Assembly: GCA_051294905.1 (NCBI GenBank)
Contig: CM119372.1
Location: 5,520,001 to 5,584,000, forward strand
DNA length: 64,000 bases
From: Botryllus schlosseri
Taxonomy: Eukaryota
Direction of reading: 5' to 3'
This document shows positions 982 to 59,075 of this stretch, piece by piece; position 1 is the stretch's first letter; each line of letters begins with the position of its first letter. The position numbers were made by a program, and so were the translations under genes. The notes beneath the pieces were generated by a model. The model had not been told where the DNA came from. It searched no databases and was given only the letters and a program-made list of their open reading frames with translations.

Positions 982-1248
982 ATGATCTTTCATTTACCGG
1001 GGATAATGAGACTGGATGTAAAATTATTCCGCTTGGCTCTGCCGGAAGTGTGTTGTGTCGGTCAGCATCAAACCAAGATGTAACATGGTGGCATGACGGA
1101 ACGCGGGTGTCTGAGTATGCTCCAGGGAAGCCTGTTCAACAATTGGATGGTGGATTATACTTTTACAACTTCGCGACTAAGGAAGATTCTGGCGATTACT
1201 ACTGCAAGTCACAAAATGATGAGAAATTACTGAAAGTCTATATTGTGG
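982..1248 (+). CDS. Unit A Ig-domain exon (I-set/C2-like), phase 1-1; leader exon not found in window
   Basis: ctaac branch-like motif, then ccagcag|ATGAT acceptor; GTGG|gtaagt donor; 267 nt. Encodes DDLSFTG..GCKIIPLG..VLC..VTWWHD..EDSGDYYC..KVYIV with B-strand Cys, C-strand Trp and DxGxYxC. Paralogous to 7780, 30304 and 58587. Confidence 0.85.
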
Positions 1249-1671
1249 GTAAGTGATCAGATGTGGGCTTTGGGGTTGCGGAGGACTCGTAATATGCAAG
1301 TTGAAATGGAAATGCATATTACAGTTGTAAAATATATTTCCCGAACTTCACCATTTCCAAGTAAGTTGTCGGCGACGAGCCGAAATTACAAGTTCCATGT
1401 GCAAAAGCGAACCCAATCACTTTCGAAGTGCATATTATAAAATTGTATCTTTCAAAAAGGGATAGCAAAGTTTCTTATGGCCAAATAGAGTTGATAGTTG
1501 ATAGAGTTGTCATGAAAATTTGATCGGTATTTAAAGTTCTAGAGTTCTAGATATCCGTGCCAGACAATGAGCAATATAATCAATTAAACATGTCTGCGAT
1601 GAATTCGAACGGGTCATATTATGGGGTATAGGCCTTCAAATATAATAAGAACATTTCAATTTCGCTCACAG

Positions 1672-1752
1672 AGAATACGACAGTTGATTTCTGTGCTGCT
1701 AATTCATTGGAAACGGTTACTCATCCTACTACCGCTATTTCGACAGCAGCAG
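1672..1752 (+). CDS. Unit A Thr/Ser-rich stalk exon (ENTTVDFCAANSLETVTHPTTAISTAA)
   Basis: ttcgctcacag| acceptor, GCAG|gtagta donor, 81 nt, phase 1-1; homologous to the other four stalk exons. Confidence 0.7.
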
Positions 1753-3179
1753 GTAGTATTGCGCGGATTCATTAAATTGGCCACGGTTAAAATATTAGGC
1801 CTGTATATTTGTGTGGTGCCATGCATCAATAGTATGAACGTCACTTGCGTGTGTGTGGGTTGGTGCTGTGGCGATTAACTATCGTTAACAATTTGTTTCA
1901 CAACGGGCCATGTTGAAGTCAAAAATACCCTTTTTGATCGCCATTGCTGCTTGGTTTATCACCCTATGGGTGGCAGAAGACTAACGTTTTTTTTTCTGGC
2001 GAAGTGCTGTTTCGGCCCTGAACTGATGTCGTAGTTTTCGCAGTGGCTTGGTAATAAAAGCTTGGGGACTTCATGCATAAAACAAAAACAAAATAAAAAA
2101 ACAACAACAATAATAATAATGAAATCTTGTCTTGAACAAGGGCCATTTTTGAAACAGGCTTGACAATTACATTAAACATGGCCGCCACCACTTCATGAAA
2201 AAGCTTCCTTACCTTTACATCCCTACGCGACGCCTTGATGTAAATTTGATTATTACAATGTTTTGACAAAATTATATGCATGAGTTAATGCATGGTACAT
2301 TCATTGCACATATCGATGTAAGCGAGGTGAGCGTCTGGCTCAGTCGGTAACACAATCTGTATCTAGCATGAAACCGTCGACAAGGAATTTGAAATATTGT
2401 GAACATTATCCAGTCATTCTTGGGGCAAGTTTTTGTTGCAGTCAAATCCGTAAAAAGTTGCACTTATTTTTCACAAAAGTTGCAGTGAGAATTTGCATTT
2501 ATTTTTCACAAATGTTGCACTAAAAGTTGCATTTTGGACAATTTCTTTGACGTTGTAAGGGTATGAGATACTCTCATGCTAATCGATCCGTATCCAAGGC
2601 ACTGCAGCATAACTCAGTGTTGGCGACTTCGACTTCAACAAAATCAATAGCCTGAAAAAATTGACCAGGTGAATATATAATTTTGGGCGGTCTAGCCTGA
2701 ATGTACGTCGATTTAAACGACAGTGAAATAATCAAGTGATCTATTTACAGATAGTGCCAAATATTTCCAGTAAAAGTTGTATGAAAAATTTGCAGTAATT
2801 TTCATGAAAATCAAAAAAGTTGCATGAAAAAATGGAGATAATTTGCCAAAAATTGCAATGTGAGATTCCTCATAACAGCTTAAAACACCATGCTACATAA
2901 CTTCTAAGTATTGAGGAAACTGCCGGAAGCTGTAAAACCAAAGTTGCAAAAGTTGCAAAAGTTTGCCCTAGGTATTATACATCACTGCCATGTGTGTATG
3001 TATGGATGCATGTATGTATGGAATCCTGACTTTAATTGTCGAGATTGAATCGCTCACTCTAAATTATTAATAATATTAATATTATTAATTAAATTTCTAA
3101 ATTTCTTACCAAACAAGGTATTGCAATTGTAAAGTTATTAGCGGACAAGTATATTATTTAACATATTTTATTTCATACC

Positions 3180-3340
3180 ATGCTGACGGTAAGTTGCTTT
3201 TATTCATCATGAAGCCTTCCGAAGATTTTCTCCATCCGTAAATAAATATTATTACGATACAGCATGTCACAGAACATATGATTTAAGAATTGAAACCAAT
3301 GTTGTTGACTGGATAATATCTCTATTTGATTATCTGCTTC
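3180..3340 (+). promoter_or_regulatory. Conserved putative promoter/5'UTR module shared by units B, C (about 27690-27861) and D (about 41870-42034)
   Basis: Collinear shared blocks (caYcaWgaagcc..cgaag, ttgaaacc, gatta..tct) immediately upstream of each leader ATG; function inferred from position only. Confidence 0.45.
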
Positions 3341-3413
3341 ATGAAGGTCATCACCAGCGACACAATAGTCATAGCCATCATAACAATCCTATCACGTCAC
3401 GCCCTTGCCCAAG
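3341..3413 (+). CDS. Unit B signal-peptide exon (MKVITSDTIVIAIITILSRHALAQ)
   Basis: ATG, hydrophobic core, ALA-Q cleavage-like site, CAAG|gttact phase-1 donor; paralogs at 27862 and 42035. Confidence 0.8.
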
Positions 3414-4573
3414 GTTACTGACTTGATATATAATAAATATGTGAGGGATCGACCACATACCAGTCCGAGATCGAGAAACAGAAGACAAATAATATTAGTT
3501 TGAAACTGCAGTCTTCCAGAAATTTGAACGGCAAAAAGAATCAATCCAGACTGATCTGCAGTCGCACTGAATGTATAATGGTCGTGCCCGTGGCGTAGGA
3601 GTATATGATGCCACCCTGACTTTCGTTGAAAATGGCACCCTAACTAGACTGCAGCATATTTTGCAATAGTTTCATGTTCAAACAATTACACATAATGCGC
3701 TGTGTCTCAGAAGTTCGTTTGCTTGAGAAAGAAATCTATCCGTCAGACTTGTAAAAACTACCCATTTAGTTAGTTGATGTCAACTGACTAACGATTTTTG
3801 AGTAGTTATCGTTCTAGTTCTAGTTGCTGATTTTGAAAATTCAGTAGTTGTTGTTCTGGTTCTATGGCAGATTTTGAAACTTCAGTAGTTTTAGTTCTAG
3901 TTCTAGCTGCACATTAAAAAAAATAGTTGCCGAGCAACTAGAAAACACGTGTCGTCGTTTTGGGTGAATTAAGATGCCGGTGTTGAATGATTTTTATGCA
4001 ATGCGCTGCCATGGCACGCTCAGAGCCATCACTGCTAACAGTGGCGTAGCCAGCGGGTGGCTTTTTGGGGTTCGAATTTCTCCCATTTCAAACTCGAAAC
4101 CCTGTTCTTTTGAAATGTCGATTCAATGTCTGATATTTCCGATAAAAAAAATTAATGTGTGAACTATAGGAGAACGAAATCTAGTTCTGTCTGTACGGTT
4201 CTTAAACTTTAATGACTTAAGAATGACTACGTCACAGATGGGCAACTATTTTTCTGAGAATAACAGGCGCAGGATATACGTTGGCGAGCTAAGTCATGAT
4301 TTTGCGCTATATTCCGCGCTGTATTAATTTCTAATCATTTATAAATTGAAAGCAATGAAGTACATGGTAAGCACAAGCTTCTGGGTGGATGTGTTACTAT
4401 TAGGCAATTAGTAATTTAGAGTTAAAGTACAAAAATAATATTTATCCCAACTAATTATTCAAAACAAAGGCTTACAAGGAATATTGTTAAATCTTTTAAA
4501 TCACTCCAACCCCTAGACACGTCCTTCTATTAAGACACCAAAATGTATGGGATGTTACAGCTTGATCATTATC

Positions 4574-5460
4574 CAGTGTTGGGATCAAGTCACTACCTTC
4601 GAGTCACGAGTCATTTGAGTCATTGCAGATTTTGACTCGAGTCAAGTCAAGTCAATCGATTTTTGATGGTGACTCGAGTCAAGTCAAGTCACTCGATTTT
4701 TGGAGGTGACTCGAGTCAAGTCGAGTCAAGTCAAGTCAAGTCACAATTCAAGTCAAGTTGCCTTTTCGGCGTATCAGGCATGCTTACGTCATTGCATTTT
4801 GCTAGCTGTCTGAAATACATATTGCGTGGTTATTTATTCTGAGCCGATGAACGAATATAGAGTCAAATATACAAGCAAGAAGGCGCTGTATCGCTCACAT
4901 ATACCTAGAAATGCTAATTACATAGCCTCAGTTTAGTTACCAGCCAAAATAGAGACTATAGAAAAGCGAATAAATAAGATGTAATGCATTACCCATTAAC
5001 AAATTGATATGACAATATTCGAGCGTGCGCCAATGGTTGAGTACTATGTACACTATATTCGAATTCAATTTCAATAAAACAAGAGGTTTGGTTAATGCAC
5101 AAGAACAGAGAACAGAAATATCCATTTTGCGTAAGCTGTATGCTTCGATCACTTCATTTGTGGTTAATTTATTTGTGAGAGAACAATGGAGCTTCAGTAA
5201 AACGCACGATCATTGAATGATTGGTCGCTTTCACGGGTTAAACCAGCGTTTCGCGAACAATCCGACCATATGCAGGATAGAGTGTTTTCATCGACATCGA
5301 TTGCTTGATGACTGGAAATTGACTCGTGAATTTTGCTCCGAGTCACGAGTCAATCCGCATTTCTGATACGCCGAGTCAAGTCAAGTCAAGCCATTTTAGC
5401 AAAGTGACTCGAGTCAAGTCAAGTCATACGAAAAAGGTGACTCGAGTCATCCCAACACTG
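4574..5460. mobile_element. hAT-type MITE with GAGTC/AAGTC subterminal arrays
   Basis: TIR CAGTGTTGGGAT...ATCCCAACACTG, perfect 8-bp TSD TCATTATC; related partial copies at about 590-770 and 15790-16492. Confidence 0.9.
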
Positions 5461-7779
5461 TCATTATCCCGAGCGGTGTGTATAGCTTAGTAAAATCGTC
5501 CTGCCGTATTGGTAATTTCGCTAGCAGGATTTCCAAATTCGTCTTCTCGCAGCCTCAGCCGAATGACTGCGTGCTTATGTCATAATCCCGACTTAAATCA
5601 ACCCATGTTATATCGACTTTACTTTAAATATAGATTACGCTAGTAGCCAGGGATCGGCTACCCCTGGCACGCGTGCCAAAAGTGACACGCAATATGATTT
5701 TTCATGAGACGCTAAACGATTCGATGTGCGTTATTATAACTATGTTTCTTGCAAAAAATTGAAAGAAAAGTTTTCAAAATGGAAAAACTCGAAGGTGAAT
5801 CCAAATTAATTCGCAACATGAATGATAAGGACGTCTTTTGGAAGATATTTTATTTTTCATCAAAATTTTCTCTGCAGTTCTCGCGTATAGTCCGTATTTT
5901 CCCCGTGGACAGTAAAATGCCCAGGTCTGCCCTACGCTAATCTACAAGCCTTCAGGGAACCCGTAATTTTCAGTGAGTCACAAAACAAAAATCCACCACT
6001 GGTGTAGGCTACATACCATATGTGCTGTAATATGAAGGTATATACGAGTAAAGCTTGTCAGGCAGACTTGTACAAACTACCCATTTAATTAGTTGATAGT
6101 CAACTAAGTAACGGTTTTAGAGTAGTTCTAGATCTAGTTCTAGTTGCGGATTCTGAAAATTGGGTAGTTCTAGTTCTATTCCTAGTTGCGAGTTTTAAAA
6201 ATTGAATAGGCGTAGTTCTAGTTCTGGTTCTGGTTGCCCTTTTTGAAAATCTGGTAGTTTGTACAAGTTTGCTCACCGCCTCAACGTTAAGGCCAAAAAT
6301 AAAAGACAAAAAATGTAGAACAAACGTATATTAGGCAAATAAAAGATCAATAGCCGCATCAAAATAGAACTTTTCAAGCTTTCACCGAAACAAAATGAGC
6401 AAAAATATATTCCATATCATAACTTTGAACGTAGTCTCTGTTTATGAAATAATCGATAGAGCTGATAGCTGATCATCATTCATGGTAGAACGTAAGTTTA
6501 CTTCAGTATTTTGAGAAACTCCTCTCACAGCTCGCAATTGAATCAAGAATGGTAAGATAAAGTTTCAGACAAGGATATAAATAGCCATCTCTACGTGTTG
6601 CGTGCACTGTGCAGCCTCATTTTGCCGCCGCTTGCAGCCTGCCACACTGGCGCAGAGCCAGAATGAATCGCCAAGTGACTGCTACGCCACTGGGTCGTGG
6701 ATCCTATCTGCCGATGAGGTCAGCGCAAGATTTGAAATGCCGGGATACGGAATCATGAATCGAGCTTAGATCAAATTCGATACTAGACTCAACACGTAAA
6801 GGCCAAAGTTTGTTGCTCATGTATAGGAGACGGTCGGCTTCACATTTCGTCCACACCGACATTCTCATCTTCACAGAACAGCACCAATTCTAGATTGGGG
6901 GCCATTCTATAAGTTGGCAGATCAAGAATCATAATAAGAAATATCGACCTGGTGTAAATGACGATAATAGTCGAGGCAACACGAATACCAAAGCCACAAC
7001 GACAGAACGGCAGATGAGATATTTTTCATTGAATCGAATATATATATGCAATCTTTACATTTTTGAGTGAATTTGTCATTGCGACTGGACGAAATATCTC
7101 CTATGTATCACGGTAACTTAATATATTTTGGCAAACGTTAGTAAAGGAAAATATATATACTGTCTTCAGTCATTTTGTGTTATAGTCCAAAGTAGCCACT
7201 TTCGATCAACAGCGAAACTATTGTGACCCCCCGACCAAATCTAAAATATTGGGAAGCACGGGCTTAAAGTTTACCGAATACTCTGTCATACTGTGCTACA
7301 ACATTTTAGGTTTCATAAAATATTTCATTAAAAATATTGCTCTGTTGCTGTTATACGCTCACCAAATGTTCTCCAATGGAGATCAAAATTTGATTAGCTT
7401 TATCGGGAAAAATCCTGAAAAGATGAAGGAATTATGATATCAGAATTGGATTCAGCCACTTAATAGTAACATGAATCAATCATTAAAATTTGGGGCAAAA
7501 CTTTTTTGAAATTTGTGGACCAGTGTAATTTATGCATCGGCTTAGTGTAGTTGTTATAACATATATATAGAACCCAGGGATTTCTGGAAATCCCTGATAG
7601 AACCAGGTGGTTGCATTGATCACATTGGTACATCTGATCTCAGTTTGAGAGACATGTTCCAATTTTAGTATGTGTACTGCCGAAGCGAGTTTGAGAGCCA
7701 TGTTGATTACATTTTAATTCGCTTGATATCGTCGCTTAATTGTAACTGCACCTAACAGCTGGCAATGTGTACCTGACAG

Positions 7780-8049
7780 ATGATATTTCGTTTTCCGGGG
7801 AGGATGATGGTGGATGTAAAATTGTTGCGCTTGGAGATAGTGGACACAATACGCAGTGTCTGTCAGCATCACACCAACATGTAGCGTGGTGGCATGACGA
7901 CACGCGCGTGTCCGAGTATAACTCAGGGGAATCTGTTCGACAACTGGAAGGTCGGATTTACTTTTACTACTTCGCGACTGTCGACGATTCTGGTGATTAC
8001 TACTGCAAATCTGATTCAGATGAAAAGCTATTGCAAGTCTACATTGTAA
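7780..8049 (+). CDS. Unit B Ig-domain exon
   Basis: ctaac..ctgacag|ATGAT acceptor, GTAA|gtaagt donor, 270 nt, phase 1-1; TQC..VAWWHD..DDSGDYYC motifs. Confidence 0.9.
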
Positions 8050-8762
8050 GTAAGTAAATAGGTGAGACTCCATTCTAAAGTTTGTTTAAATTTTGAACGA
8101 CACCAGACGTTAAGCGTGCTGGAACTAGAGTTGCATTTGAAACAGAAAATCAATTTAAAACAAACATGCATAATACATAATGGATTAACATTAACAATTG
8201 AAAATATAGGGTGAATATAGTTCCTTTGTACAGTACAGTACAGTAATTGTTGAACCGACCATTCTGAGGGTTTCAATTATCCCATATCGTATCCATCGGC
8301 TATATCTGGTTGTAATTGTCCGCAGGCCCAAACAACATGTTATGCCAAAGGGGGCATAAGGGGAGCGAAAATGTTAGAACGTCCAGTGAGATATATTTAA
8401 TTATAATGGCCATGAAGACGACTTTTCTGCATATGACATGAAGAAATGGTCAACGCAAGCCGGTTTTCCGAGCACCTATTAGTAAATTTATTTTTAGGGT
8501 CAATTCAAGAGCGATCAGAGTTGGGCGAATAAATGTCACGTTTATATATCCTCATTTTCGGATCCATAAATAATGGGAGGGGGGGTTGGGGGCGAGAATT
8601 TGTGTCTAGCTTGATAATGCGGCGATGAGTCGAAAAAGGTTGGGAACCACTGATTTAAACGAAATGATTTAAATAACCATTTGCTTTAAATGCAACCCTA
8701 AAGCTGGAACACGCTTTCAAAGAATTGGGGAGCGTTATCACTAATTTCACTGTCACTCACAG

Positions 8763-8849
8763 ATGTAACGGAGACTTCTACAGAGGAATTGTGTACTAAT
8801 GATGCTGATACTTCTACTGGCGCTACTACTGCTATTTGGACACACGCAG
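8763..8849 (+). CDS. Unit B stalk exon (NVTETSTEELCTNDADTSTGATTAIWTHA)
   Basis: cactcacag| acceptor, GCAG|gtatta donor, 87 nt, phase 1-1, Thr-rich. Confidence 0.75.
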
Positions 8850-9912
8850 GTATTATTGTGTGAATTCAGTGTATTAGTCACGGTGATCAATGTTAGAGCT
8901 ATATGTAACAGCCAACAATACATTCAATGAGATACCACATTGAAATCAAATACACCCTCATTCAAAGCCATATTTGCCGCAGCATTTGACTGCATATAAG
9001 TTGTGTTGCTGCAAACGTCGAATATTTTATGCGACTTATTCCCTTTTCTGCAATATATGCACGGCTGTAACCAAGTCACAAGGTTCCGATTCACAAGTCA
9101 ATTTTACTTTCATGGTTTTGACTCGAGTCAAATCGAGTCATTTTCAATTCAGCAACGAGTCAAATCGGAGTCAAAGTCAGGAAGCAATGGGTCGAGTCAT
9201 AGTCATGTAGCAGGCCTGGGCAAAGTCCGGCCCGCGGAGCTATTCTGTGCGACCCGCGTAAGGTTGCTTGAAATTGAAAATATAAAACCTACTTTTTAAT
9301 GTTGTTGCGTGGACTAAAACCATAGGATGTATAAACTGAACCGGAAATTCGTGTACTATAAAGCCTGTTTATTAACATGCCGCGACCACGCAGCCTATAT
9401 GCGTACCTCATATCGGTAGTTCAGATTCAAAGTAAAGTCAATGTAGCAAATTATGCCGTTATAGTTATTAAATTCACAAGAAGTCACCAATCCGTCTTTG
9501 TTGCCATTGTCACATTACGCATTACACGGTCTGTGTTTCAAATTGATATGTGATGCGTTTCCAAATCCTGAGTTCGTGAAACAAGTCAATCAGTGCCCGT
9601 GATTTCTATTGGTAAATCACCATACATACAGGATGGCAAAAATATGAAGCCAAAAGTTCAAATTCAAAGAAGGTTCGGAGGACTGAATATTTGTTTACTA
9701 CCCGTCTTTTAGTCGTTAAGTGCTGAGCACGTCGCCGTGTTTAAGAAGTATAATTTAAGTTGGTTCTATGACAAAAAACGAAAACATTTAGGCTACACTT
9801 GATTAAGGGACGGCGAATTTCGGAATAACGGCAAGCTTGGCTCAACAGCAAGGCCATTTCGGCAAGATGCACACTTTTAGGAAACCAGCTACCAAGACAA
9901 TAAGTTTTATGG

Positions 9913-10354
9913 CAGTGTTTCCCAACCGGGGGGGGGGGGGGGGATTTTGAAATTTTTAGGGGGTAATCTGGCCTAATTATTTTAGGGGTAGAAATTAGAA
10001 CGTAGAAATTAGTTCATTACAATTGTATGTTTCTTTGGCGGATTTCAAGCTAGCTGTATGTTTAAATGCCTTCCGTAGATATCACACCCCCTGAAAAAGT
10101 GAGGCTCGCGAGACGATTTCGATGGGTCCGCAACAGCCTCTCGACCAAATTGCTACTAAGCAGGAAAACGTCAAGCCGAATTCAGCACAAGGTCGCTAGT
10201 GAAATTGATTTTTCAAGCCAACATATGAGCTAACGTGAAAACATACCGTACCAAATTCACCGACTCAACTCAAGTCCATAGCAAGCGGAGTTGGTTATTT
10301 TAGCTCAAATATCGGCCAAGGGGGGCACGAGACGAAAAAGCCTGGGAACCACTG
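9913..10354. mobile_element. hAT-type MITE inserted in an older hAT remnant (about 9211-10375)
   Basis: TIR CAGTGTTTCCCA...TGGGAACCACTG; TSD TTTTATGG/CTTTATGG. Confidence 0.7.
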
Positions 10355-11029
10355 CTTTATGGTATCCCCAGGACCATAACTTCAGTGGTTTATTGAATTG
10401 GGCATTACCGCCATTACCGCGCCACTGCGCTTCAAGATATATAAGAAGTTCAGGCCAACACGGGATTCCGAGAAGGCACTGCAATTGCAACTGCTGATCA
10501 AATTAACTGAGTAAAGGGAAAAAAGCTCGCCAGCGAAAAAAAACCTTGGCCGAGTAGGACTGCCCTTATGTTGACCGAAAACCACGTTGTCCAATTGTCC
10601 ATTCTTCCGACGCGGCACAGAAGTCAATGAGTGGCGCTTTGTCAGGTGTCGGATCCTGTCTGCTATACAGTAAATCTGGCTCGGACTAGACAAACCGTTG
10701 CGTATCAAATCTTTTTTTGATCTCAAATTCAAGCAGTCCAAACGAATTATACTGAAACAGCTTGTTCAGAATAAAGGCATGTAAATGGTGAGATTAGCAA
10801 GATTGCTTGTTCGTCCAATAACAGTTGAATGGAGGAAGAAATAGCAGTCACAGAGCAATATAAAGGTAAACGCGAACGGACGATGCGACAATTTAATCAA
10901 CCAATCATTAAATCAAACATGACCATTAAGAGTTGTAGAGGAGAATATCGGAATGTAACTAAAAACATGACTCGTCGAAACACTCCCCCACTTGACCGAC
11001 TATGATCGGTCAACAGATTCTTTAATAAT

Positions 11030-13466
11030 CTATCCAACTTCAAAAGACGAACGGATCGACGTAGAATTACCGCCGAACCCGCTAATGTCGGGACAATCGC
11101 TTTTAATCGGTGATAGCTTCAATGAAGCTAGATCACGAGTTACAAAGCTCTTCTGGGAAAAAGAGTCAAACGCGATTCTAACCGGTTTACCATCACCATT
11201 GTGGTTGATCCGTCCCAGCGTAGTAGGAAATAATGTGTTTGAATCTAAATCCCGCAATGCAGAGGTGGCAACGTCAGTAGTTGTTACCATACACTTGGAG
11301 TCGATCGATGGTTCCGTAGAAACGTGCAGCAATTTGTGGTGGGTTTTCCCACAACCAGCGGCGGTACAACGCTCCTTGCATTGATGAAAGTGTTTCGGGT
11401 GGCCTTTGTGTCCTTTCGGTGCTAAGCATCTAAAACACACTTTCCCAGGCTTCAAAACCAAGTCAGCCAATCGCTGGGCTGAAGTCAATTTCAAGAATCT
11501 GGAACAATCTTTCAATAGATGAGGTTTGGAGCAGTAGGCACAAGATAATGGAACAAATTGAATGACGAGAGACTGGACTGAAAACGATTGATCAGGCTTC
11601 TCGGTATCACAACTAACCCGTTCATCTCTATGCTGCGACTTATCACAAGTATAAGCAGAGCGGCTTCCATCACGCGACTTATATCCAGATTCCATCGTCA
11701 CCAACTCGGATGTTAGAAACTCAAACAAATGATCAGAATCAGGAACCTCATCGGCTTCGATCAAGGGACTAGTTTTCGTGATCCAACGTTCATGCAACGT
11801 ATACCCGGCAACTCTGGGACTCTAGTACCTGCGTAAAGAGTTGGTCCCGAAAGACGTCATACTGCGATAGAATAGCCCTTTTAGCAGCAGCGGCATCGAG
11901 AATTCGTCGGACTTCGTCGATCTTAATTCGATTCTCACCTTGCAGCAAGTCTTCGATGTGATTTCTTACTATAGCTTGCTTCTTCCCGTGCCTTTTTAAT
12001 AACGGCATCCACTGCAGGCTCATAATTCGCGGCCGTTGAGGGGAAACCATCGAGAAGGCCGGATGACGATCCTTCAAGAGCCGCCTTTAAATACGAGATT
12101 TTGTAGAACCGACTGAACTTTGGATTCTTATGAACAAGCGGCTCGAACGACTACCAAAAGGCAGGAAAGGTCAAAATGTCACCATTGAATGTAGGCGGCA
12201 CTATTCCACTGGGGAGAGAACCGGCGGCTTTGTCAGCTTCCTCAGCAGCTTCAAGTGATGAAGACTTGGATTTGGCAAGAGGAATGTGAACAAAATAAAT
12301 CTATTTTGATCTTTTCTTGCCATCAATGATCTCGGTCTTCAAATCACTATCGTCAAGCTGGTCTATTTTTGAATCCACGAATGTCTTAAGATCGGTCATC
12401 GCTATTTCTACCGACTGTATAAAGACATTGATTTCTTCTACGGAGGTGGAATGCGTATGTTTCTTTTCTAGAGCTTGCAAATAATCCCAGAGTTCGGCAT
12501 TCATGCGTCTGAATTTCCTTAAAATAACCGCAGGTCGACACGAATCTCCAATGTTTGCCGATGGATGGTTGGCGGGCTTCTTGACAGAGTCTTTCAAGAA
12601 CTCGCCCAAGTTGAGTAGGCTTACCATATTTTGGAAATCTAAAAAGAGGACACTTTTTCAGAAGTTTGAGACTTACAAAACCAGAGAAAAATTCTCAAAA
12701 ACCGGTGAATTATTCCCACTTTGTGATCGGTTGACTAAAAAAAAGGTCATCTTACCGCTCAGAGCTCAAAAATACCGTTTTTCTCTCCACATTGCTAGAT
12801 GGATGACTAAAAAAAAAAGGTCAACTTTTCGCTCAGAGCTAAAATCACCGTTTTTTACTCCGAAATACCAGCCGGAGCGTCACTTCTGTGCTAATTTACG
12901 GCATATCACTCGCAATTTGCTCCAAATCTGACCTAAATTTTCAAAAGAAAGGACAAAATCTCAAAACAGAGGACAAAAGGGCGTCCTCCGAGGACACTTT
13001 CAAAAAAGTCAAAAAAGAGGACAAATCCTCTTAAAAGAGGACGTATGGTAACCTTAAAGTTGAATTGGTCTTTCATTAACTCCTGGCGAATTTCTTTCAG
13101 GTTCAGTTGAAACCGTTTTTCGCTTTTATCACGAACTTGTGCCTGTATTCTTTCGGCTTCCTCACGATCCAGCACCTGTCTCTGCTTGAGCTCTTCGAGC
13201 TGCAACTGAAACTTGCGGTCGGCAGCTTCACGATCTAATTGCTGTTGCTGACGATCGAGATCCTGCTGATGCTTCATCATCTGGAAAAGCATAAACAGCT
13301 CAGATGGACTCTCAGTGGTAGCTGGAGAGGAGGACTTCTGCTTGGTTTTCTGTGAAGGCTTGGTCAAATCACGGATTTTCCTTAATCGCTCCGTTAATAC
13401 CGCCTTGCTCCCACTTGTAGTTTCGCCAAGATCTTGTAATTCGGATCGTAAATCGTCGACCGTCAT
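11030..13466 (-). pseudogene. BEL gag-protease pseudogene with N-terminal SAP-like motif, broken by stops, frameshifts and a MITE
   Basis: ORFs 12933-13466 (MTVDDLRSELQDLGETTSGSKAVLTERLRK), 12301-12627, 11790-12077 and 11030-11797 (CAYC..H..C, CFRC..H..C, C...CGKTHHKLLH). Confidence 0.8.
12616..13056. mobile_element. hAT MITE (TAGGCTTACCATA TIR, AAAAGAGGAC repeats) inserted in BEL gag
   Basis: TSD AAGTTGAG/AAGTTGAA; removing it restores the gag frame; same family at 39610-40028 and partially at 42856-43140. Confidence 0.88.
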
Positions 13467-14441
13467 CTTAGCTAATGACTTCCAAGTCGGTGCTAGGGTT
13501 CTAGGGTGCTAGAGACTCGCGGGAATCCGTTGGTGACTTCACAATAGACATCACTCAAAAGTATGGAAACTATATAAGTATTAGCAGATTTAGTGCCAAG
13601 CAGAGTCGATCGATCTTCGTTGGGCAGCAAGAGTCTTGAATGTAGACTAATACCATACGGTGCCTGAATTGAAGAGCGTATCGAAGATATCGGCTTTAAA
13701 TGGGCTTCTTGGGAATTGTTCCGACGCGTCACTGAAGTCAATGAGTGGCGCTTTGTCAGGTGTCGGATCCTGTCTGCTGTACACTAAATCTGGCTCGGAC
13801 TAGACAAACCGTTGCGTATCAAATCTTCTTCTGATCTTAAATTCAAGCAGTCCAAACGAATTATACTGAAACGGCTTGTTCAGAATAAAGACATGTAAAT
13901 GGTGGGATTCGCAAGATTGCTTGTTCGTCCGATAACAGTTGAATGGAGGAAGAAATAGAAGTCACAGAGCAATATAAAGGTAAACGCGAACGGACGATGC
14001 GACAATTCAATCAACCAATCATTAAATCAAACAAGACAATTAAGAGTTGTCGAGGAGAATAACGAAATAACATAATATCTTTGAGTATACGAGATTTGAA
14101 AGTCTGACCAACGTAGTTGAGAATTCATTTCTTACAATCGAACGCTGGTGTTATATCGAAAGTTATCATTCTGTAAACATAAGGATTGATACATTGATGT
14201 GACATATGTAATAGTTGATCATGACTTGATTATTAAATTATTCGCGTTAATTAGACCCGACGTTGTGGTAAAGGTTATTATGACAGCAACGAACGTTTCA
14301 CTACCATGGTTATTAACATGTTGAGTTGTAAAACTATACTTGTCTGAAATGTTCTTGATTGGAAAATTATTCCACCTTGGTACAAATTACTCTGCGTATC
14401 GCGGATATCAGAAAATATTTTACAAATGTAATTGTTTCCAG

Positions 14442-14577
14442 TTACCAAGACTAAAGATGAAACAACAAATTCGTTTGCTGGTCAACAACCGGTACAATAC
14501 ATTATTGTCAGAATCTGTGACAGTGAATTGAAACATACGAACCTTACACAGTACGAAAAAATCACTTTGGACTCCGG
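14442..14577 (+). CDS. Possible additional unit B ectodomain exon (VTKTKDETTNSFAGQQPVQYIIVRICDSELKHTNLTQYEKITLDS)
   Basis: tgtttccag| acceptor, open in phase 1, in non-repetitive sequence. The donor (GG|gtggcg) is weak and there is no paralog in the window. Confidence 0.3.
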
Positions 14578-17411
14578 GTGGCGTCATTTAATCCGTGTTA
14601 AACTATGTTCACACTCTCTGTCGAATGCGCGAAATGTAAAACATTACGAGGCTACACTCTAAGACTTTGATCAGCAAACAAGAAAATAGAGCTATATGCT
14701 TGTTGGATGGATCCTATTCAACCGACCTTGGTTAATAAAAAACTCATAACAATAATAAAATTACAGTATGTGCTACACTGAAATCCACAAAAATGTGTTT
14801 GTATTGCTGTTCATAGTAGTGATATCGATTTGAACCTCCAGAATAATTGTCATCATCTAACCAAACTCCTCACCTGCTCCCAGACGGCATAGTTGCGTCA
14901 CAATACCAAACTCCGTTACGATGCAACATTCGAAGCTGATTTTGGGGGGTTCCAGGACCACGAGCAGAATAGAATTTATATTTTCGCAATTAATACCGCG
15001 ATAGCTTTCGATTGATACCCGTTTTATCAATTTTAATGCTTGGCAAGCCGGTAAAAAATTACCGCCAAATTGCCTTTGACCAAAGGGAAAGTGCGACGTA
15101 GACCTCTTTCACTGAGCCGTGAGATTTGCTTGTGTACACACCTTATAGGACACTATGCTGTGCTCAATCAACTCACGGTGCAATCCCTAATTAACATTTC
15201 AATGTGTTCGATAAGCCTGGTACCCCAAATTTACCAATATATCAATTCATCAGGGCTGAGTAGGTGATGAGATAGCGTCGTTGTTCAACTGTGTGACCTA
15301 TTTTATCTCGATATTAAATTCATGCGGACCGCGGCATCTACGAAATTTGAAAAGTGGCCCACGACCCGTTTTGAGTTGGCGTCCCCTGGCTAAGCGGTGT
15401 CTTACAAAAGCCTACAAGTGTGCCGTGCTACAAGTCGGCGGTTACGGAATCAAAAATTAGAAATATCGGTCTGGTGTAAATGACCATTGTAGTCTACCAA
15501 CACCATGATTACCACAAACGATATTAGGGTTGAGTACATCATAAATGCCGATAATGCAAGTCTTCTCGCTTCGACGAACTTACGTGCAAGCTCCACTCGC
15601 ACGCTGCGCATACAAATAACATACAGTCACTAAAATTTGACGTAGTAAGCAAGTAGTGGGGTATCTCGGCAGACTGTAGCCGCGGGCCACATTATCATAT
15701 AAGACGGAAAACTGTCCGCATGCCGGACAAAATCCCTTCGCTGGCCGGATCCGGCCCGCGGGCCGTATGTTGCCCACCCCTGGTGTAACCCGTGAGAGTG
15801 ACCAATCATCCAGTGATCGTGCGTTTTACTGAGCCTCCATTGTTCTCCCACTAATAAATTGACCGCTAACGAAGTGATCGAAGCTTACAGTTTACGCTGA
15901 CGTAAACTAGCAGAGTAAAGTAATTATATAGCAAAATGTCTATTACTGTTCTCTGTCATTACCTGAACCAAACTTCTTGTTTTATTGAAATTGAATTCGA
16001 ACATAGTCCTCAACCATTGGCGCATGCTAGAATTATATCATATCAATTTGTAAATGAGTGATGTATTGCATCTTATCAATTCGTTTCTCCATTCTCTATT
16101 TTGGCTGGTAACTATAAGCTGAGGCTATGCTATTACTTACGTAGTTTAGCATTTCTACGTATATGTGACCGATGCAGCGCCTTCTTGCGTGTATATTTAA
16201 CTTCATATTCTTTCATCGGTTCAGAATCAATGACCACTCAATCTGTATTTCAGACAGCTAGCAAAATGCAATAACGTAAGCATGCCTCATAGTTCGAAAA
16301 GGCAACTTGACTTGAAATGTGACTTGACTCGTGACTTGACTTGACGTGACTCGAGTCACCTCCAAAAATCTAGTGACTTGACTTGACACGAGTCACCTTC
16401 GAAAATCGATTTACTTTACTTGACTCGAGTCAAAATGTGCAATGACTCGAAATGACTCGTGACTCGAAGGTAGTGACTTGATCCCAACGCTGATAGTACG
16501 TAGATATAGATCATCGGTACGGAATGAATGTTCTGATGATGATGACCGCCGACCGTAAAAATGCCACATGACGATGTGGTCCTGGTTAAAGATATTTTTG
16601 GTCCGTATATGACAGCAGTTCGAAGCCTATTTCGTCAAAGGAGCTGTAATCACCATATATTTTCAATTGGAAATATGAATCCACGATGACGTCATATTTA
16701 ATATGCATGACGTCAAGGCTTAGAAAAAACAAAAACAAAAAATACACGTTTTAAACAAGGGCCTTGTTTTAAATATGTTCGTTTTAAATTGATTTTTGTT
16801 TAAACACAACCCGAGCTGTGTAGCTTTTTTCATTCATTGCAATTTTCACGTCAATTTCTGGTTCAAATTCTTTGCAATTCAACTTCTAGCCACTCCATGC
16901 ATGGCGCTGGCAGCACTAAACGAGCGTGCACCTTGCAGATCTCAAAAATTTTGCTTGCTGTAATACATAAGTTTGTTCGAAATAACCAGATTTGCATTGT
17001 GTGTGTAGTTATGCCAGCCTACACTGCTACACAGGGCAGCATTAACAAAATGCTGCCAGTTTATGTATTCATGGTTTATTCCTTGTAGAAATTAGTAGGA
17101 ATGGTGCAAACCTTTGTAAGATTCTGATTGGCATACTGAATACGTTCGCACCATCCCTAAAAATTGGTACCTCCTCAGATTGACTACTTGCCGACGACCA
17201 TACTGCAAAAGTGAAATCAACAACTCTCCGGCAGACGCAGTCGATGATTGCCAATAATTTGTGATACGCTTACACGTTCTAAAGGCACTTTTTGTCGGAT
17301 GATTCGGACATGAAGTGTCGGATAACGAAGCTCTAACGTTTATATATTTGCAGAAACCGGCGGAACACTCGGGAATTCAAAAGAAGAATTTAATATTGGT
17401 ATGCTCTAAAT

Positions 17412-18185
17412 CAGGGGTCGCCAACTCAAAACGGGTCGCGGGCCACTTTTCAAATTTCGTAGTGGCCGCGGGCCGCATGAAGTCACTGTCGATATAAAGT
17501 AGGCAAACACGTTTTAAAACTCTACGTCAGTACAACACTGTGCTACCTAACATAGGAGATGGCGATAGTGACCACAAAAGAAGTAATATTTTATTAAACA
17601 AATGAAAATACAACAAAAGATCACTGTCACCAATTTCATTTTATTTTGTACCTGGAACGCTTTTGGGGGGCTGGGGAGATACGTTACTAGCTGAAAAACT
17701 ATCTCCTCGTAAAGCTTGATCTTGTGGAGGAGTCCTAAGCCAGTGGTTCTCAAACCTTTTTAGATATGCCCCCTTTATGATACTGAAAATTTGGTCCCCT
17801 CCCCCTTATCGTCATATCACAAAATGCATCCATAATGCTAGCAAACGGATAGTTTGAGAGAATGTTGATGAGAGATATCTATAATATGAATTCAGGACTA
17901 TAGCCTACACAGAGCAATAACTATAACCATGAATTCGAGGTAAATCGCGCCGAGCGCGAAACATTTTCAGTTGACCACAGCTCCGCGCCCCCTTCAGATG
18001 CTTTGACGCCTCCACAAGGGGAAGTGCCCCCCAGTTTCAGAACCACAGCCCTAAGCCGTTTTCTATTCGTCTCAATCTTGGCAGTGTTTCGGCCATTGCA
18101 CGTCAATTTCAGCATTTCCAAATGTTTTCTTAGCTTTCTTCCGAAATCTCAAATCAAGTTGCGGGCCGCGTGTTGGTGACCCCTG
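17412..18185. mobile_element. hAT MITE (CAGGGGTC TIR) containing nested MITE 17741-18048
   Basis: Perfect TSD CTCTAAAT; inner element CAGTGGTTCT...AGAACCACAG with TSD TCCTAAGC/CCCTAAGC. Confidence 0.85.
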
Positions 18186-18199
18186 CTCTAAATCATAAC

Positions 18200-18471
18200 G
18201 AGCGAGATCGTGCAATGGTTGTGCGCCCGGCTTCTCGATCGGTAGGTCGTGGGTTCGATCCCCGGCCGGGTCAGACCAAAGACTCTAAAAACTGGTATCC
18301 ACGGCTATCCTGCTAGGCGCTCAGCAATCACGGATAGCATGGAGGAGAAAAAAACCGGGGGGTGCAGACTAGATGACCTTACTAAAAAGGCCGTATCGCA
18401 TCTCCGTCGTCAAAGCATCTCGATGGCGCAGGCGAAAAAGAATACCATGTCTCTCTCTCTCTCTCTCTCTC
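18200..18471 (+). mobile_element. tRNA-derived SINE with (TC)n tail
   Basis: A-box-like head, B-box GGTTCGATCCC, central GGTCAGACCAAAGACTCTAAAAACTGGT..CTGCTAGGCGCTCAGCA resembling conserved animal SINE core domains (from memory), microsatellite tail. Confidence 0.75.
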
Positions 18472-18610
18472 ATGCATATATTACGGAAAATAACGTACCG
18501 TGAATTCGCACCGTGCATTATTTCCAAAATCCAATCGTAGCGCTAAAAGCATGTACGTACCGTAAGGTATCAGTTCCTTGCCTGTAATCCCCGGTTCCCT
18601 TTCATTGCAG

Positions 18611-18692: not shown

Positions 18693-18837
18693 GTAACTTT
18701 TGCATAGCGACATGAAGAATATGATATAGTGTAAAATGGGGGGAAATATTTTACAGACGCAAAACTCATGAACAAACCTCTGATCGATCATGCTCAAGGT
18801 GTGTATACTTTATATTTATTTGCTATTACCTCTATAC

Positions 18838-40045: not shown

Positions 40046-42034
40046 GGAAGAAGACGTCCGTGATATCACCTTGCTCATCGGTGGAGTCACTATAGCTCGT
40101 AATTAACTTGCTATCGCCGTTCCATTCGTTTGCGCAACAAGTTGCTCTGCACACTATGTCTCATCCAAGTAATGAATATATGCAAACAATGAGATGCGAG
40201 AAAGTGAAAGCAAATGACTGCTTCGATAAACACTTCGCGACGTGCATATACAACAGTACATTGTACAATGTACATTTATACAATCATGTACCCGGCCACA
40301 GCACAATGGTACAGTGACTAAGGCAGATTGATGAAGCTAGATTGATTGGTGCATATCTGAGGTAACAAGGTTGACAAAGTACGCTTCAATATGAGATGCC
40401 AATACTCAGAACGTACTATAGATTAGATACCAATCTGGCACAGTATATATGACAAGTCATTTTGCAGTGTGCAGTGCATTGTGCATTGCGTATACAATGA
40501 CAATCACCTGGAAATTGGTCAGTCAGATATATCGGCATCGATGTTAAGAATTGGATTTGGGAATAGCCTATAACATGTCAGAGGAAGTTTCAAAACGAGT
40601 CTATTTCGGAAGGACTTTAGTACAGTAGATCTTAACTAGTGTGAGGGGTCGGATTAAGACATGGATCGGGAGCCTTTTTCGTCAAAAGAGCCATGTTTAC
40701 CCTATATTTTTAATTCTCGACGTCACTTAACTGAGACGTCAAATTAAAGTGCCGGGACGTCATGGATAAAAACAAACAAAAAATAAACAATAGAAATCAT
40801 GTTTTAAACGAAGCCCATGTTTCGAATATGTTTGTTTTCAGTTGATTTTTGTTTTCAATGTAACCCTAAATACAACAATAACGGAGCATCAGTTACAATT
40901 TCTTTTGCTGTTGCTGTTTGCATTGACTATTTACTCGGAAAACTTGATCGATTGGCTTGTGTTTCTTACATGCAATATGTTATGTACTTTCGACATATCC
41001 GCCAACACTCCACGGAAAAACGTTTTGCTCTGATATCCCTACGCGACGCCTTGGTTTAAATTTGATTCCCGCAACGTTTTGACAATATATTATACACGAG
41101 TTAATGGCAGGGGTCGTGTATTCAAAACGGGTCTAGGGCCACTTTTCAAATTTTGTACAGGCAGCGGGCCGCATGAATTCAATATCTATATAAAATAGGC
41201 CAAATATATTAACAAACACGTTTTCAAAACATACGGCTAGTAGTACAACGCTGTGCTCTCCAACATTGGCGACGGGCATAGTTACCACAATAAAAATAAT
41301 ATCTTATTAAAGAAATATAAATGCAAAAACAAATGTGAAGAATAGTGATGTTGTGAGAGAGAATAGCTTATTTTGAACAACAACAACAATAATATTTAGA
41401 AACTGAAATATATTTTAGCATTACAAAACGCTTTACTGAGCGCTCTTTCGAAATGTGAAATCAGGCCGCGGGCCGCAAAATATGACCTCGGGGGCCGCAT
41501 GCGTGCACCCCTGAGTTATTGTATGGTACATTGCACATATCGATATCAGCGATGTATGCACATCTGACTCAGTCAGTCACAAAATCTCTATCTCGCGGAG
41601 CCTTGGACAAGGCATTTGAAATATTGTTAACATTATCCAGTTTTTATACGTCACTGTCACGCCATGCTTCGAAACATGTCTGTGTCGGGAACCTGACTTT
41701 GACTTTCGAGATGGAATAGCTCACTAATAAATTTATGATAAATAATTAAAGACTTAACTGCTGTTTGTATTTTAGGCCTAAAACGTTTCAGAATTTCTTA
41801 CCATACAAATTCTTGCGACATTTATAGTTGTTTTCGGAAAAGTATGATAATCAACATTTTCATTTCATTTCATGCGATGTTGTCGGTATATTCCTTTTGT
41901 TCACCATGAAGCCTTTCGAAGGTGTTCTCCATCCGTGAATAATTGTTAATATGATACATCTTGTCATAGACGATATGAATTAGGTATTGAAACCAACGCT
42001 GTGGACCGGATAATATCTATTGATTATCTACTCC

Positions 42035-42092
42035 ATGAAGCCCGTAACCGGCGGTAACATTATCACAGCTATCATGACAATCCTTGCTCAAG
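42035..42092 (+). CDS. Unit D signal-peptide exon (MKPVTGGNIITAIMTILAQ), 15-nt in-frame deletion relative to B and C
   Basis: Homologous to leaders B and C; CAAG|gttagt donor; downstream intron (42481-42580) matches the one after leader B. Confidence 0.75.
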
Positions 42093-57100: not shown

Positions 57101-58586
57101 CACCTAATACAGATAATGTAAGCTTCCATTACGAGAAACGGCAAACAGCGGCTCGGTTATGATATATATCAGCAGCTGTTGGTTTCTAATGCTTCATTGA
57201 GGAAATCGCAATGTTTATTTCATTTGTCGAGTACAAAATTTCAAATCATAGGTCTACTTCCCGTCAAGCAACAACGGTCGAGCTGCATGTAGGCTGACTA
57301 TATTAATATAACCAGACATCAATACATAAGTTACTATTTGAAACTGTAGGCAGAGTGGTGATTATTATCCTGCTGCGAGGTAATGGAGTCTGGAGTGTAT
57401 TGATAACCTGATATACAACATTGCCATCACACACTATTACATCGTATATCTATTTACAATGTGTGGATACTTCTTACGCAATGGTGAGTAAATCTAATGC
57501 TTCTGACGTAATAATGAGCAGTGTCGTTTGAAAATCAGACTTTTGTGCAATCACTGAACCTGATATAATACCTCTTCCTTGTTCACGAATGATCAGTTTA
57601 TGTCATAGTCCCGTAAAAATAAAAAGTAATCGTTCTTTCACAAAGAAATCGATTAAATATGGGAAGTAGTCGATTACGATTACGATTACTTCGGAATTTT
57701 CTCGAATGTAATCGATTGCGATTACGATTACTTGAAAATGCTGTAATCGTCGTAATCGATTATGATTACTAATCGCGATTACCCCATGTCTGCTTGCAAT
57801 ATTACTTACAAAAGTACAACAGTCACTTTATTAGTTTCATAAGAAAAACTACGAAATCTTCAGTCATTGGATTTTGTAAAGTAGAAAGTAGTTTGGCACC
57901 GTTCTGTCACATTTTTCAGTGGAATTGTCCTGGTGACTGGACAAAATAGCCCTGTACCACGTTAACTGAATACAGTTTCGAAGACGTTAGTTTTGGCAAA
58001 TATATAGTGCCGTCAGTCATTTGGCGTCAGTCCAAAGTAGCCACCTCCGATTAACAGCGAAACTTTTGCGCCCCCTCGACCAAATCTAAAAGATTGAGAA
58101 CCACGGGCTTCAAGTTTACCCAATAGGCTACTCTGTCATATTGTGCTACAACATACTAGGCTTCATCAAAAATTATTTTATAAAAATATTGGTCTGTTGC
58201 TGTCATACGCTCACCGAAAGTTCTCTAACGAAGATCCAAATTTGCTTCATTCATGAAATTCAGCAATATTCACAGCGAAAAATTCCGATATGATAAAGTA
58301 ATTATGAGCTCGGAATTGGATTCAGCAACCACTAAGTATCCTGTATCAATCATCAAAATTTTCGGCGCAAAACTTTTTGGAATTTTGTTGACCAATGTAA
58401 TTCATGCATCGACTTAGAGTAGTTGGTATAGCATATATAATAAGGGCCTATGGTTGTACTGGTGACATTGGTGAATCTGATCTCAGTTTAAGCCTTAATG
58501 GACATGTTGATTTCATTTTATTCGCTTGATCTCATCGTTTCTTTAATTTGAACTGCACTTAACAGCTGGCAATGTGTACTCGACAG

Positions 58587-58856
58587 ATGATCTTTCGTTT
58601 TCCGGGGAGGATGATAGTGGATGTAAAATTATTCCGCTTGGAGATAGTGAACACAATACGCAGTGTACGTCCGCATCACAACAAAATGTATCGTGGTGGC
58701 ATGAAGACACGCGGGTGTCCAAGTATACCTCAGGGGAAGCTGTTCAACAACTGGACGGTCGGATTTACTTTTACGACTACGCGACTGTCGACGATTCTGG
58801 TGATTACTACTGCAAATCTGATTCAGATGAAAAGCTATTGCAAGTCTACATTGTAA
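58587..58856 (+). CDS. Unit D Ig-domain exon (closest to unit B)
   Basis: ctcgacag|ATGAT acceptor, GTAA|gtaagt donor, 270 nt; 250/270 nt identical to exon B by manual alignment. Confidence 0.9.
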   Translation: MIFRFPGRMIVDVKLFRLEIVNTIRSVRPHHNKMYRGGMKTRGCPSIPQGKLFNNWTVGFTFTTTRLSTILVITTANLIQMKSYCKSTL

Positions 58857-58988
58857 GTAAGTAAATAGGACAGACCCCCTTTATATAAAGTTGAAATTTT
58901 TAACGGCACGAGAGGTTGAGCGTATTGGTATGGAACAGTCTTTCAAAGAATTTCGCTACATTTTCACTACTTTCACTGTCACTCACAG

Positions 58989-59075
58989 ATGTAACGGATA
59001 CGACGACAGAGGACTTGTGTGCTCCTGATGCTCATACGTTTACTGGTGCCACTACTGATGTTTCGACACACGCAG
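58989..59075 (+). CDS. Unit D stalk exon (NVTDTTTEDLCAPDAHTFTGATTDVSTHA)
   Basis: cactcacag| acceptor, GCAG|gtatta donor, 87 nt like stalk B. Confidence 0.75.

Follow-up and report, generated by a model that had tools for sequence, protein, structure and literature searches.

Introduction

Among invertebrates, tunicates are the nearest relatives of the vertebrates, and to our knowledge the few recognition receptors known from them, FF and FcoR, appeared without traceable ancestors. As described in the available text of PMC12582321, FcoR proteins have an Ig-Sushi-Ig-Ig ectodomain (Ig, immunoglobulin-type domain), a transmembrane (TM) segment and tails with ITIM (immunoreceptor tyrosine-based inhibition motif), hemITAM or core YxxV/L motifs, and FF proteins combine Ig and Sushi domains with three TM segments; the loci comprise 38 FF and 56 FcoR, arranged head-to-head as pairs, FcoR ectodomain and tail exons are swapped between genes, and alternative splicing alters the tail. 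Here we describe a cluster of single-Ig units in a 64,000-nucleotide stretch of the Botryllus schlosseri genome (assembly GCA_051294905.1, contig CM119372.1, positions 5,520,001 to 5,584,000; this whole stretch is called the window, and coordinates below are counted from its first letter). Four such units, A to D, lie in the window, and an earlier note, made from the letters alone, had proposed them as a candidate immune or allorecognition family.

Several vertebrate and invertebrate systems offer points of comparison. In single-Ig inhibitory receptors of vertebrates such as LAIR-1, the Ig domain sits on a stalk and is followed by a TM segment free of charged residues and a short ITIM tail, and CD300, TREM and NITR form tandem clusters; in ITIM-bearing receptors the phosphorylated motif (I/V/L/S)xYxx(I/V/L) recruits SHP-1/2 or SHIP. 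The CD3 chains carry a CxxC in the stalk, an acidic TM residue and an immunoreceptor tyrosine-based activation motif (ITAM: YxxL/I, 6-8 residues, YxxL/I), and Hydractinia Alr proteins have tandem Alr-type V-like domains with extreme allelic polymorphism. As to gene layout, immunoglobulin mu chains are made in secreted and membrane forms by poly(A)/splice choice, and in the protocadherin clusters and UGT1 a set of constant exons is common to all variable units, each of which is transcribed from a separate promoter and spliced to that set. Secreted and membrane-bound neighbour genes are also reported at the Botryllus fuhc locus, in the available text of PMC3691228.

The four units of the window are probably part of a small, lineage-restricted family with eight copies of a single Ig domain. 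On balance, A, C and E1 of this family are taken to be soluble proteins and B, D and E2 type I membrane glycoproteins with tyrosine-motif tails, E1 and E2 being the units of a third block downstream of the window. In this model a unit would consist of a conserved 5' flank, a signal-peptide leader, one Ig exon and one or two Cys-bearing, Thr-rich stalk exons; in each block the second unit (B, D, E2) would be completed by TM and cytoplasmic exons to a type I membrane glycoprotein of ~200 amino acids (aa), and the first, upstream one (A, C, E1) would yield a soluble Ig-stalk protein. The Ig domain would bind a ligand, and the membrane form would signal through phosphorylated tail tyrosines, in the C/D block probably with an inhibitory effect through recruitment of SH2 phosphatases. 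The secreted neighbour would serve as a soluble partner or decoy, and the family would diversify through block duplication and exon exchange between copies.

Ig exons and family size

The window is repeat-rich, eukaryotic DNA with ~40% G+C over its 64 kb, and contains four plus-strand open reading frames (ORFs) of 103-115 aa. Compared with the first, the others show 59-63% identity, and 48 alignment columns are invariant. Alignment with flanks places the Ig exons of A to D between a common acceptor, cag/ATGA (the slash marks the exon edge), and a common donor, /gtaagt (Table 1). The earlier note had begun at 982 and ended at 59075, which proved to be exact exon edges, and the exon alignment confirms the lengths that it gave (267 nt for A and C, 270 nt for B and D) and the homology between the introns of B and D. 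At the protein level the four exons are 55-81% identical, and a Cys, a Trp and the motif DSGDYYC are kept in every copy. When nine copies are aligned, C27, W37 and SG-YYC (C76) are invariant in all nine, as is an extra Cys on the N-terminal side. These are the hallmarks of the immunoglobulin superfamily (IgSF): a B-strand Cys, a C-strand Trp and an F-strand D-x-G-x-Y-x-C, with the cysteines ~50 residues apart.

A profile of the nine copies finds titin Ig (1.3e-8), Fc-gamma RIII, IL-1R and CD3 gamma/epsilon (3.3e-4) among 64 Ig-type PDB sequences with E<=0.01, and the neighbours in an Atlas search were generic I-set/V-set clusters only. The domain may best be described as I/C2-like with an additional N-terminal Cys. 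Conservation extends to the ~160 nt 5' of the Ig exons A to D (826-981, 7600-7779, 30145-30303 and 58428-58586), which are 66-74% alike between copies against 59% in a random-pair control (maximum 62%, n=30 pairs). The intron 3' of the Ig exon, unlike this stretch, is not conserved.

The whole assembly (495.5 Mb, 219 contigs, with the window at C2:5520001-5584000) was searched for further copies, and two different Ig-exon queries returned the identical eight places. Seven of the eight lie on C2 between 5.521 and 5.707 Mb (187 kb), all on the plus strand. The eighth is an intact 267-nt exon with good splice sites on the minus strand of contig C14 (1504-1770 of the fetched piece). The 16 kb examined there contain nothing recognisable as a leader, stalk, TM or tail exon of the family, so that this copy may be either a single exon moved by transposition or a gene that has diverged strongly.

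Leader and stalk exons

All exon types were mapped over 253 kb fetched around the window. When the sequence was scanned for an ATG with a hydrophobic core and a phase-1 donor, a leader exon of the type MK(P)...AIITxLSRHxLAQ/G was detected in units B, C and D, and leader homologs also precede both Ig exons of the third block. All seven aligned leader copies keep the ATG, the open frame and a G/gt donor. The four co-oriented leader, Ig and Thr-rich stalk units that the earlier note had proposed are borne out in their exons, phases and splice sites, except that only three of the four leaders lie in the window, that of A being outside it. A further, orphan leader exon with intact ATG and donor is present at window coordinate 135069, with no family Ig exon in the next 52 kb.

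Two other stretches were considered as leaders and rejected. An ATG-led stretch (ATGCAT...) in the conserved block preceding the Ig exon has neither a hydrophobic core nor a common open frame. The Leu-rich alternate frame of the stalk exon (8799-8849), considered as a signal peptide, has an ATG in only two of four units and a phase-0 donor that does not suit the phase-1 Ig acceptor, and it belongs to an exon downstream of the Ig exon; this frame is a by-product of ACT/GCT-rich codons.

The ~1.2 kb preceding the leader of unit B has homologs upstream of the leaders of C (27233-27861), D (40985-42034), E1 and E2, and each of these conserved 5' flanks could be the promoter region of its own unit. 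On the 3' side, a stalk exon rich in Thr, Ser and Ala and of phase 1-1 follows each Ig exon at 0.2-0.7 kb. The first stalk exon carries a single Cys in six of six units, and the Thr-rich stalks are presumably O-glycosylated.

Transmembrane and tail exons

The units are arranged in three blocks of the same order (A,B; C,D; E1,E2), each with one TM set per two units. In block 1, leader, Ig and stalk exons of A and then of B are followed by the TM exon at 18611, which reads VVLIAIPVTLILVIVPLSLLVAWCLSL and was found by hydropathy and splice-aware scans of the 64 kb. In block 2 the TM exon (88386) and the tail exon (89078) come after C and D; counted in window coordinates, both are already outside the window, the TM exon ~29 kb downstream of D and the pair 24 kb beyond the window end. 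In block 3 the order is E1, E2, TM exon (125458) and tail exon (126132). The TM peptides of all three blocks are free of D and E, and the TM exon of block 1 is divergent. In the mapped region, A, C and E1 have neither a TM nor a tail exon after them. The earlier note's picture of four self-contained receptors is therefore replaced by one TM/tail set per two units: the window holds a single TM exon, and A and C have none of their own. A TM-like ORF at 72288 had been considered as the anchor of D, and was dropped in favour of the set at 88386-89186, which is homologous to that of E2.

The tail exon reads NIVLYDTVALESTTGQCNDSYSLPRKSEHPVAPYE in block 2 and KSEIYDTVELESKTGQCNDSYSPPRKSEHPVAPYE in block 3, and in both its acceptor is of phase 2, a direct fit to the TM exon. 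Between the two blocks the last 22 tail codons differ by three synonymous changes and one non-synonymous change, as read from the printed letters; the frame is therefore coding. The C/D tail contains the motifs NIVLYDTV..DSYS..APYE, of which VLYDTV fits a canonical ITIM. The E-block tail is otherwise similar, with EIYDTV, which does not fit an ITIM at position -2.

Conceptual joins of B (209 aa) and D (196 aa) are open. The type I membrane protein that the earlier note had assembled from unit B stands as far as the signal peptide, Ig domain, stalk and TM segment of this join are concerned; its Tyr-rich tail remains an open-frame model, and the putative last coding exon (18897-18975) is without a homolog in the other two blocks. 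The acceptor attttacag/ACGC is invariant in all three blocks, at an equal distance from the TM exon. The family to which these exons belong is real and new; it is a small family of IgSF receptors in which, unusually, two units go with one membrane anchor, and literature searches retrieved no paper describing a single-Ig tunicate family of such build.

Ends of the upstream units

The three units without a TM exon share a further feature. In A, C and E1 a poly(A) hexamer (ATTAAA, ATTAAA and AATAAA, respectively) lies 19 nt after the last stalk donor, and read-through past that donor gives seven residues followed by a TAA inside the hexamer. At the five stalks that would need to be spliced onward (the first stalks of C and E1, and those of B, D and E2) the hexamer is present in none, the corresponding letters being ATTATA, ATTATA, AGTGTA, ATTGTA or diverged. 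Because A, C and E1 combine the lack of a TM exon with a stop within a poly(A) hexamer 19 nt past the stalk, they would be soluble Ig-stalk proteins, and a TM-less, secreted product is most likely for each. This suggests that the unit pairs are pairs of secreted and membrane proteins.

The same features bear on the reading in which each unit is a variable cassette, both units of a block splicing their stalks to the shared TM and tail exons so that two ectodomains are served by one signalling tail, as in the protocadherin clusters. The single TM/tail set per two units in all three blocks, the separate 5' flanks and the compatible phases would suit such an arrangement. However, splicing from the upstream unit would then need to bypass the acceptors of both the second Ig exon and the second unit's stalk, and the poly(A) hexamer after the unit-1 stalks argues for an end at that point; this reading is considered very unlikely.

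A block might go further than a pair of neighbouring genes. It could be a built-in soluble/membrane pair, or a single transcription unit that chooses between poly(A) addition and onward splicing, combined with a frame switch in the tail. Blocks 2 and 3 have a conserved 22-nt exon of phase 2 to 0 between the TM and tail exons, with the invariant acceptor attttacag/ACGC; its skipping would lead to the tyrosine tail (ITIM-type in this proposal) and its inclusion to a short, Tyr-less one. This elaboration is regarded as improbable.

Transcription and splicing

Positions 1-20000 were compared with reads of three bulk RNA runs (X5, X7 and X9; ~6-13% sampled) and with an older run, X1, which is guessed to be RNA. 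One X1 contig, of low depth, fits 7778-8044 on Ig B with no differing letter and continues in 72 letters unlike the window, with the break at the acceptor; another begins with 29 unlike letters and then fits 18610-18771, with the break at the TM acceptor. These break-points support the use of two predicted acceptors, those of Ig B and of the TM exon, in this one data set. A third contig, also of low depth, covers 1035-1252 on Ig A with one differing letter and extends 4 nt into the intron, and others are intronic in A and B (229-379, 6919-7152 and 7357-7508). The X1 depth is 0.12 in the bin of A's stalk and ~5.9 for the Ig B contig, and given so low a depth over A's stalk, Ig B was probably joined to leader B rather than to that stalk.

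This last point matters for another reading, in which each block is one gene with two promoters, the upstream one giving a two-Ig membrane receptor (Ig-stalk-Ig-stalk-TM-tail) and the inner one a one-Ig form. All introns between the joined Ig and stalk exons are of phase 1, the two-Ig joins A+B (324 aa) and C+D (350 aa) are open, the two-unit layout is kept in three of three blocks, and the inner leader has no acceptor, so that the second Ig exon would offer the next acceptor after the first stalk; the intronic X1 contigs in A and B are also what a long primary transcript would leave. Against this, the X1 depths make it probable that the 72 joined letters are not A's stalk, a stop and poly(A) hexamer follow directly after the unit-1 stalks, and the inner units retain their own conserved 5' flank and leader. 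A two-Ig product is accordingly judged unlikely, and the soluble/membrane pair is retained as the preferred reading.

The bulk runs contributed 1890-3120 laid reads each, of which 98-99% were partial repeat matches, and among the joints listed none was at a predicted exon edge. The only clean exon signal consists of eight X5 reads on the stalk exon of B, all eight with G for A at 8816 (Thr to Ala). Just 5' of the TM exon, ~60 nt at 18223-18283 attracted hundreds of partial reads in all three bulk runs (depth 15-76), which share a continuation unlike the window; the piece is common to some abundant RNA or repeat, and ARAGORN and Rfam scans of 17.8-18.6 kb gave no match.

Several observations weigh against the preferred reading, and concern each of its parts. 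For the domain, all Pfam Ig models stay below their curated cut-offs in exons A to D (the best, Ig_3 in unit A, scores 23.6 bits against a cut-off of 30, and the top row for B and D, the CD3-epsilon-type Ig_5, scores 20.9 and 19.2 bits against 27.3), and the AlphaFold2 model of the Ig exon is poor (pLDDT 52, from a 9-row alignment). For the secreted forms, the stop/poly(A) pattern comprises three units, of which C and E1 are sister copies, as are B and D among the units lacking it. For the tails, a canonical ITIM occurs in only one of three blocks, the conserved tail exon was not found in B's block by blastn or tblastn at loose thresholds, and inclusion of the 22-nt exon shifts the frame to a Tyr-less tail whose terminal TGA is kept in both blocks. 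For expression, the bulk runs show near-zero unique depth on the exons and no end-to-end transcript; the X1 contig on the TM exon begins to fit at 18610, not at the 18607 expected from a stalk ending in GCAG, and it continues through the 64-nt intron, so that the protein would end just after the TM segment.

Divergence and relatives

In a tree of the Ig exons the pairs (B,D), (C,E1) and (A,E2) are supported at 100/99, 93/92 and 93/94, whereas the stalk, TM and tail exons group block 2 with block 3. Since the two patterns conflict, Ig exons appear to have been exchanged between positions. The duplication of an AB block into CD, as envisaged in the earlier note, is upheld for B and D only: A pairs with E2 and C with E1, and the length of 267 nt, common to A and C, is found in five of the eight copies.

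Between the Ig exons of B and D, 20 of the 270 nt are different (92.6% identity), 18 of these differences being non-synonymous and two synonymous, and their flanking introns are 75-87% alike, below the exons themselves. Synonymous sites are far better kept than the flanking non-coding columns, of which 94/544 differ (Fisher p=0.003); the surplus of amino-acid replacements as such does not reach significance (binomial p=0.13). A conversion confined to the exon, with amino-acid changes arising afterwards, could account for this pattern. Across the family, 27 Ig-exon pairs have dN/dS values of 0.30-0.99, and of the 28 pairs, which are not independent, 19 have dS larger than dN at p<0.05. Given this pattern and the intactness of all eight exons, the Ig copies are under constraint yet fast-changing.

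With a limit of E<=0.001, a HMMER search of 1.84 billion representatives gave 28 matches. A single-exon fragment of 95 aa, encoded on a 1.2-kb Logan contig, is one of them and has 58% identity; the other 27 are generic multi-Ig proteins of 584-7608 aa with 22-49% identity; a word-indexed search for longer related proteins scored none of 36 candidates. With single exons as queries, no ortholog of a named gene was found, in keeping with the earlier note, which had assigned the units to none; a one-to-one ortholog of a known gene is not among the 28 matches.

The divergence data also bear on two readings of what the family does. It might be an ordinary family of adhesion or surface glycoproteins with a non-immune role (e.g. 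gamete, epithelial or neural recognition), or a set of partly decaying copies. The mucin-like stalk, the low expression in bulk RNA, the Ig-exon dN/dS of 0.3-1.0, the loss of the conserved tail exon from B's block and the C14 copy, with no recognisable partner exons in its 16 kb, are all consistent with this. However, the Ig exons are intact in all eight copies, splice sites are kept, dS is the larger value in most pairs as given above, and the tyrosine motifs are conserved between two blocks, which makes such a reading doubtful.

Alternatively, the units might be polymorphic allorecognition determinants or receptors. The cluster is tandem and rich in transposable elements (TEs), its exons are exchanged between copies (tree versus position), most B-D differences change the amino acid, and one tail is ITIM-type; allorecognition in tunicates uses clustered ITIM-bearing IgSF receptors, as stated in the available text of PMC12582321. 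On the other side, there are only eight copies, with neither a Sushi domain nor a head-to-head partner gene, and the amino-acid excess between B and D, as noted, is not significant. In the sole comparison across data sets, X1 differs from the window letters at 0/267 positions of Ig B and 1/218 of Ig A, and a hyper-polymorphic allodeterminant would not show such near-identity, although this is one comparison. The allodeterminant reading is therefore thought to have little chance of being right, and an immune or allorecognition role more generally is possible but unsupported.

Feature coordinates and neighbouring elements

Table 1. Exons and associated signals of units A to D, in window coordinates (negative values lie upstream of the window).
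Feature	Position	Strand	Description
Unit A leader exon	-5161..-5092	+	5.2 kb upstream of the window, outside
Unit A Ig exon	982-1248	+	267 nt, phase 1-1, open frame, ag/../gtaagt
Unit A stalk exon	1672-1752	+	81 nt, phase 1-1, Thr-rich, one Cys
Unit A putative poly(A) hexamer	1771-1776	+	ATTAAA with TAA stop inside
Unit B leader, conserved 5' flank	2168-3340	+	putatively promoter-like
Unit B leader exon	3341-3413	+	ATG, hydrophobic core, donor AAG/gttac, phase 1
Unit B Ig exon	7780-8049	+	270 nt, phase 1-1, open, ag/../gtaagt
Unit B stalk exon	8763-8849	+	87 nt, phase 1-1, one Cys
TM exon (only one in window)	18611-18692	+	82 nt, phase 1 to 2, ag/gt edges, hydrophobic score 3.06
Small putative exon after B's TM	18757-18798	+	phase 2-2; acceptor attttacag/ACGC
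Putative last coding exon of B	18897-18975	+	four Tyr; stop inside ATTAAA at 18968; open-frame model
Unit C leader exon	27862-27934	+	ATG, hydrophobic core, phase-1 donor
Unit C Ig exon	30304-30570	+	267 nt, phase 1-1, open, ag/../gtaagt
Unit C first stalk exon	30744-30833	+	90 nt, phase 1-1, one Cys
Unit C second stalk exon	31500-31589	+	90 nt, phase 1-1, His replaces Cys
Unit C putative poly(A) hexamer	31608	+	ATTAAA with stop, 19 nt after second stalk donor
Unit D leader exon	42035-42092	+	58 nt; 15-nt deletion relative to other leaders
Unit D Ig exon	58587-58856	+	270 nt, phase 1-1, open, ag/../gtaagt
Unit D stalk exon	58989-59075	+	87 nt, phase 1-1, one Cys

Several mobile or repeated elements lie between these exons. 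The intron between the stalk and TM exons of B contains an LTR-type retroelement (10601-14068), whose direct terminal repeats of 354 nt (10601-10954 and 13715-14068) share 94% identity and whose minus-strand ORFs include a SAP-domain protein (12936-13508, Pfam E 1.5e-8); its segment 12674-13340 has the peak repeat-derived RNA depth in run X9. Transposase remnants at 35999-36454 and 60157-61965, between C and D and 3' of D, include DDE_Tnp_4 (PIF/Harbinger type, E 6.5e-16) and a zf-BED/hAT-like ORF series. After the TM exon of B, a 1.1-kb direct duplication (18947-20012 and 20595-21662, 68% identical) and a short palindromic repeat (24646-25239) are probably repeat elements.

Comparison with known systems

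If the preferred reading is true, the locus adds one more IgSF receptor family that is independent of the others and restricted to its lineage, with exon exchange between copies, an ITIM-type tail and, next to every membrane gene, a gene for a soluble partner, and it would be a further case of the repeated invention of Ig-based receptor clusters. With eight copies and products of ~200 aa, it would also be a small, tractable system for the study of secreted and membrane forms and of tail switching. Should the poly(A) choice and the 22-nt switch both operate, one Ig module would be tuned compactly between decoy, silent and inhibitory states in the sister group of the vertebrates. As an ordinary surface glycoprotein family it would be of local interest only.

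The innate-recognition IgSF family of the earlier note survives in its description (TE-rich, tandem and diverging, with type I members that bear tyrosine motifs); the family proved to be small, with eight copies, and no tie to immunity or allorecognition was found. The systems that it named as relatives (CD300/TREM/NITR, Alr and fester) are functional analogies, as no feature that defines membership of any of them was found here. For Alr, there is no Alr-type match among the 28 HMMER hits, and no direct comparison with Alr sequences was made.

FF and FcoR resemble the family in being clustered, fast-diverging IgSF membrane proteins of a tunicate, with ITIM or YxxV/L motifs in the FcoR tail and exon exchange. 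As far as the available text on FF and FcoR describes them, the units here are set apart by having one Ig domain, a stalk and one TM segment, by their common orientation, by their eight copies and by the sharing of one TM/tail set between two units. In place of the FcoR ectodomain there is one Ig exon per unit; VLYDTV of the C/D block fits an ITIM, EIYDTV does not, and the tail of B is different. All seven clustered units are on the plus strand, with no head-to-head pairing, and each block has a single TM exon rather than the three segments of FF. No Sushi domain was matched in 128 ORFs of at least 75 aa on both strands or in 59 plus-strand ORFs of 50-74 aa with at least three Cys, and because of this the family is not considered to belong to Botryllus FF/FcoR.

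CD3 epsilon, gamma and delta (Pfam Ig_5, Ig_4) are alike in their small single Ig domain, Cys-bearing stalk, TM segment and tyrosine tail; here the stalk has one Cys, the TM segment has no D or E, and the tail tyrosines are spaced YDTV-13-YS. LAIR-1 and the CD300/TREM/NITR clusters share the order of Ig domain, stalk, uncharged TM segment and ITIM-type tail in a tandem locus, a functional likeness; the relation to them would extend to the generic Ig fold only, and the canonical ITIM is confined to one block. In the side-by-side occurrence of TM-less and TM forms of related ectodomains, and in the stop and poly(A) signal directly after the ectodomain donor, the blocks resemble both fuhc, as far as the available text covers it, and the mu chains; they differ in that each form has its own leader and its own Ig exon, and their poly(A) sites are putative.

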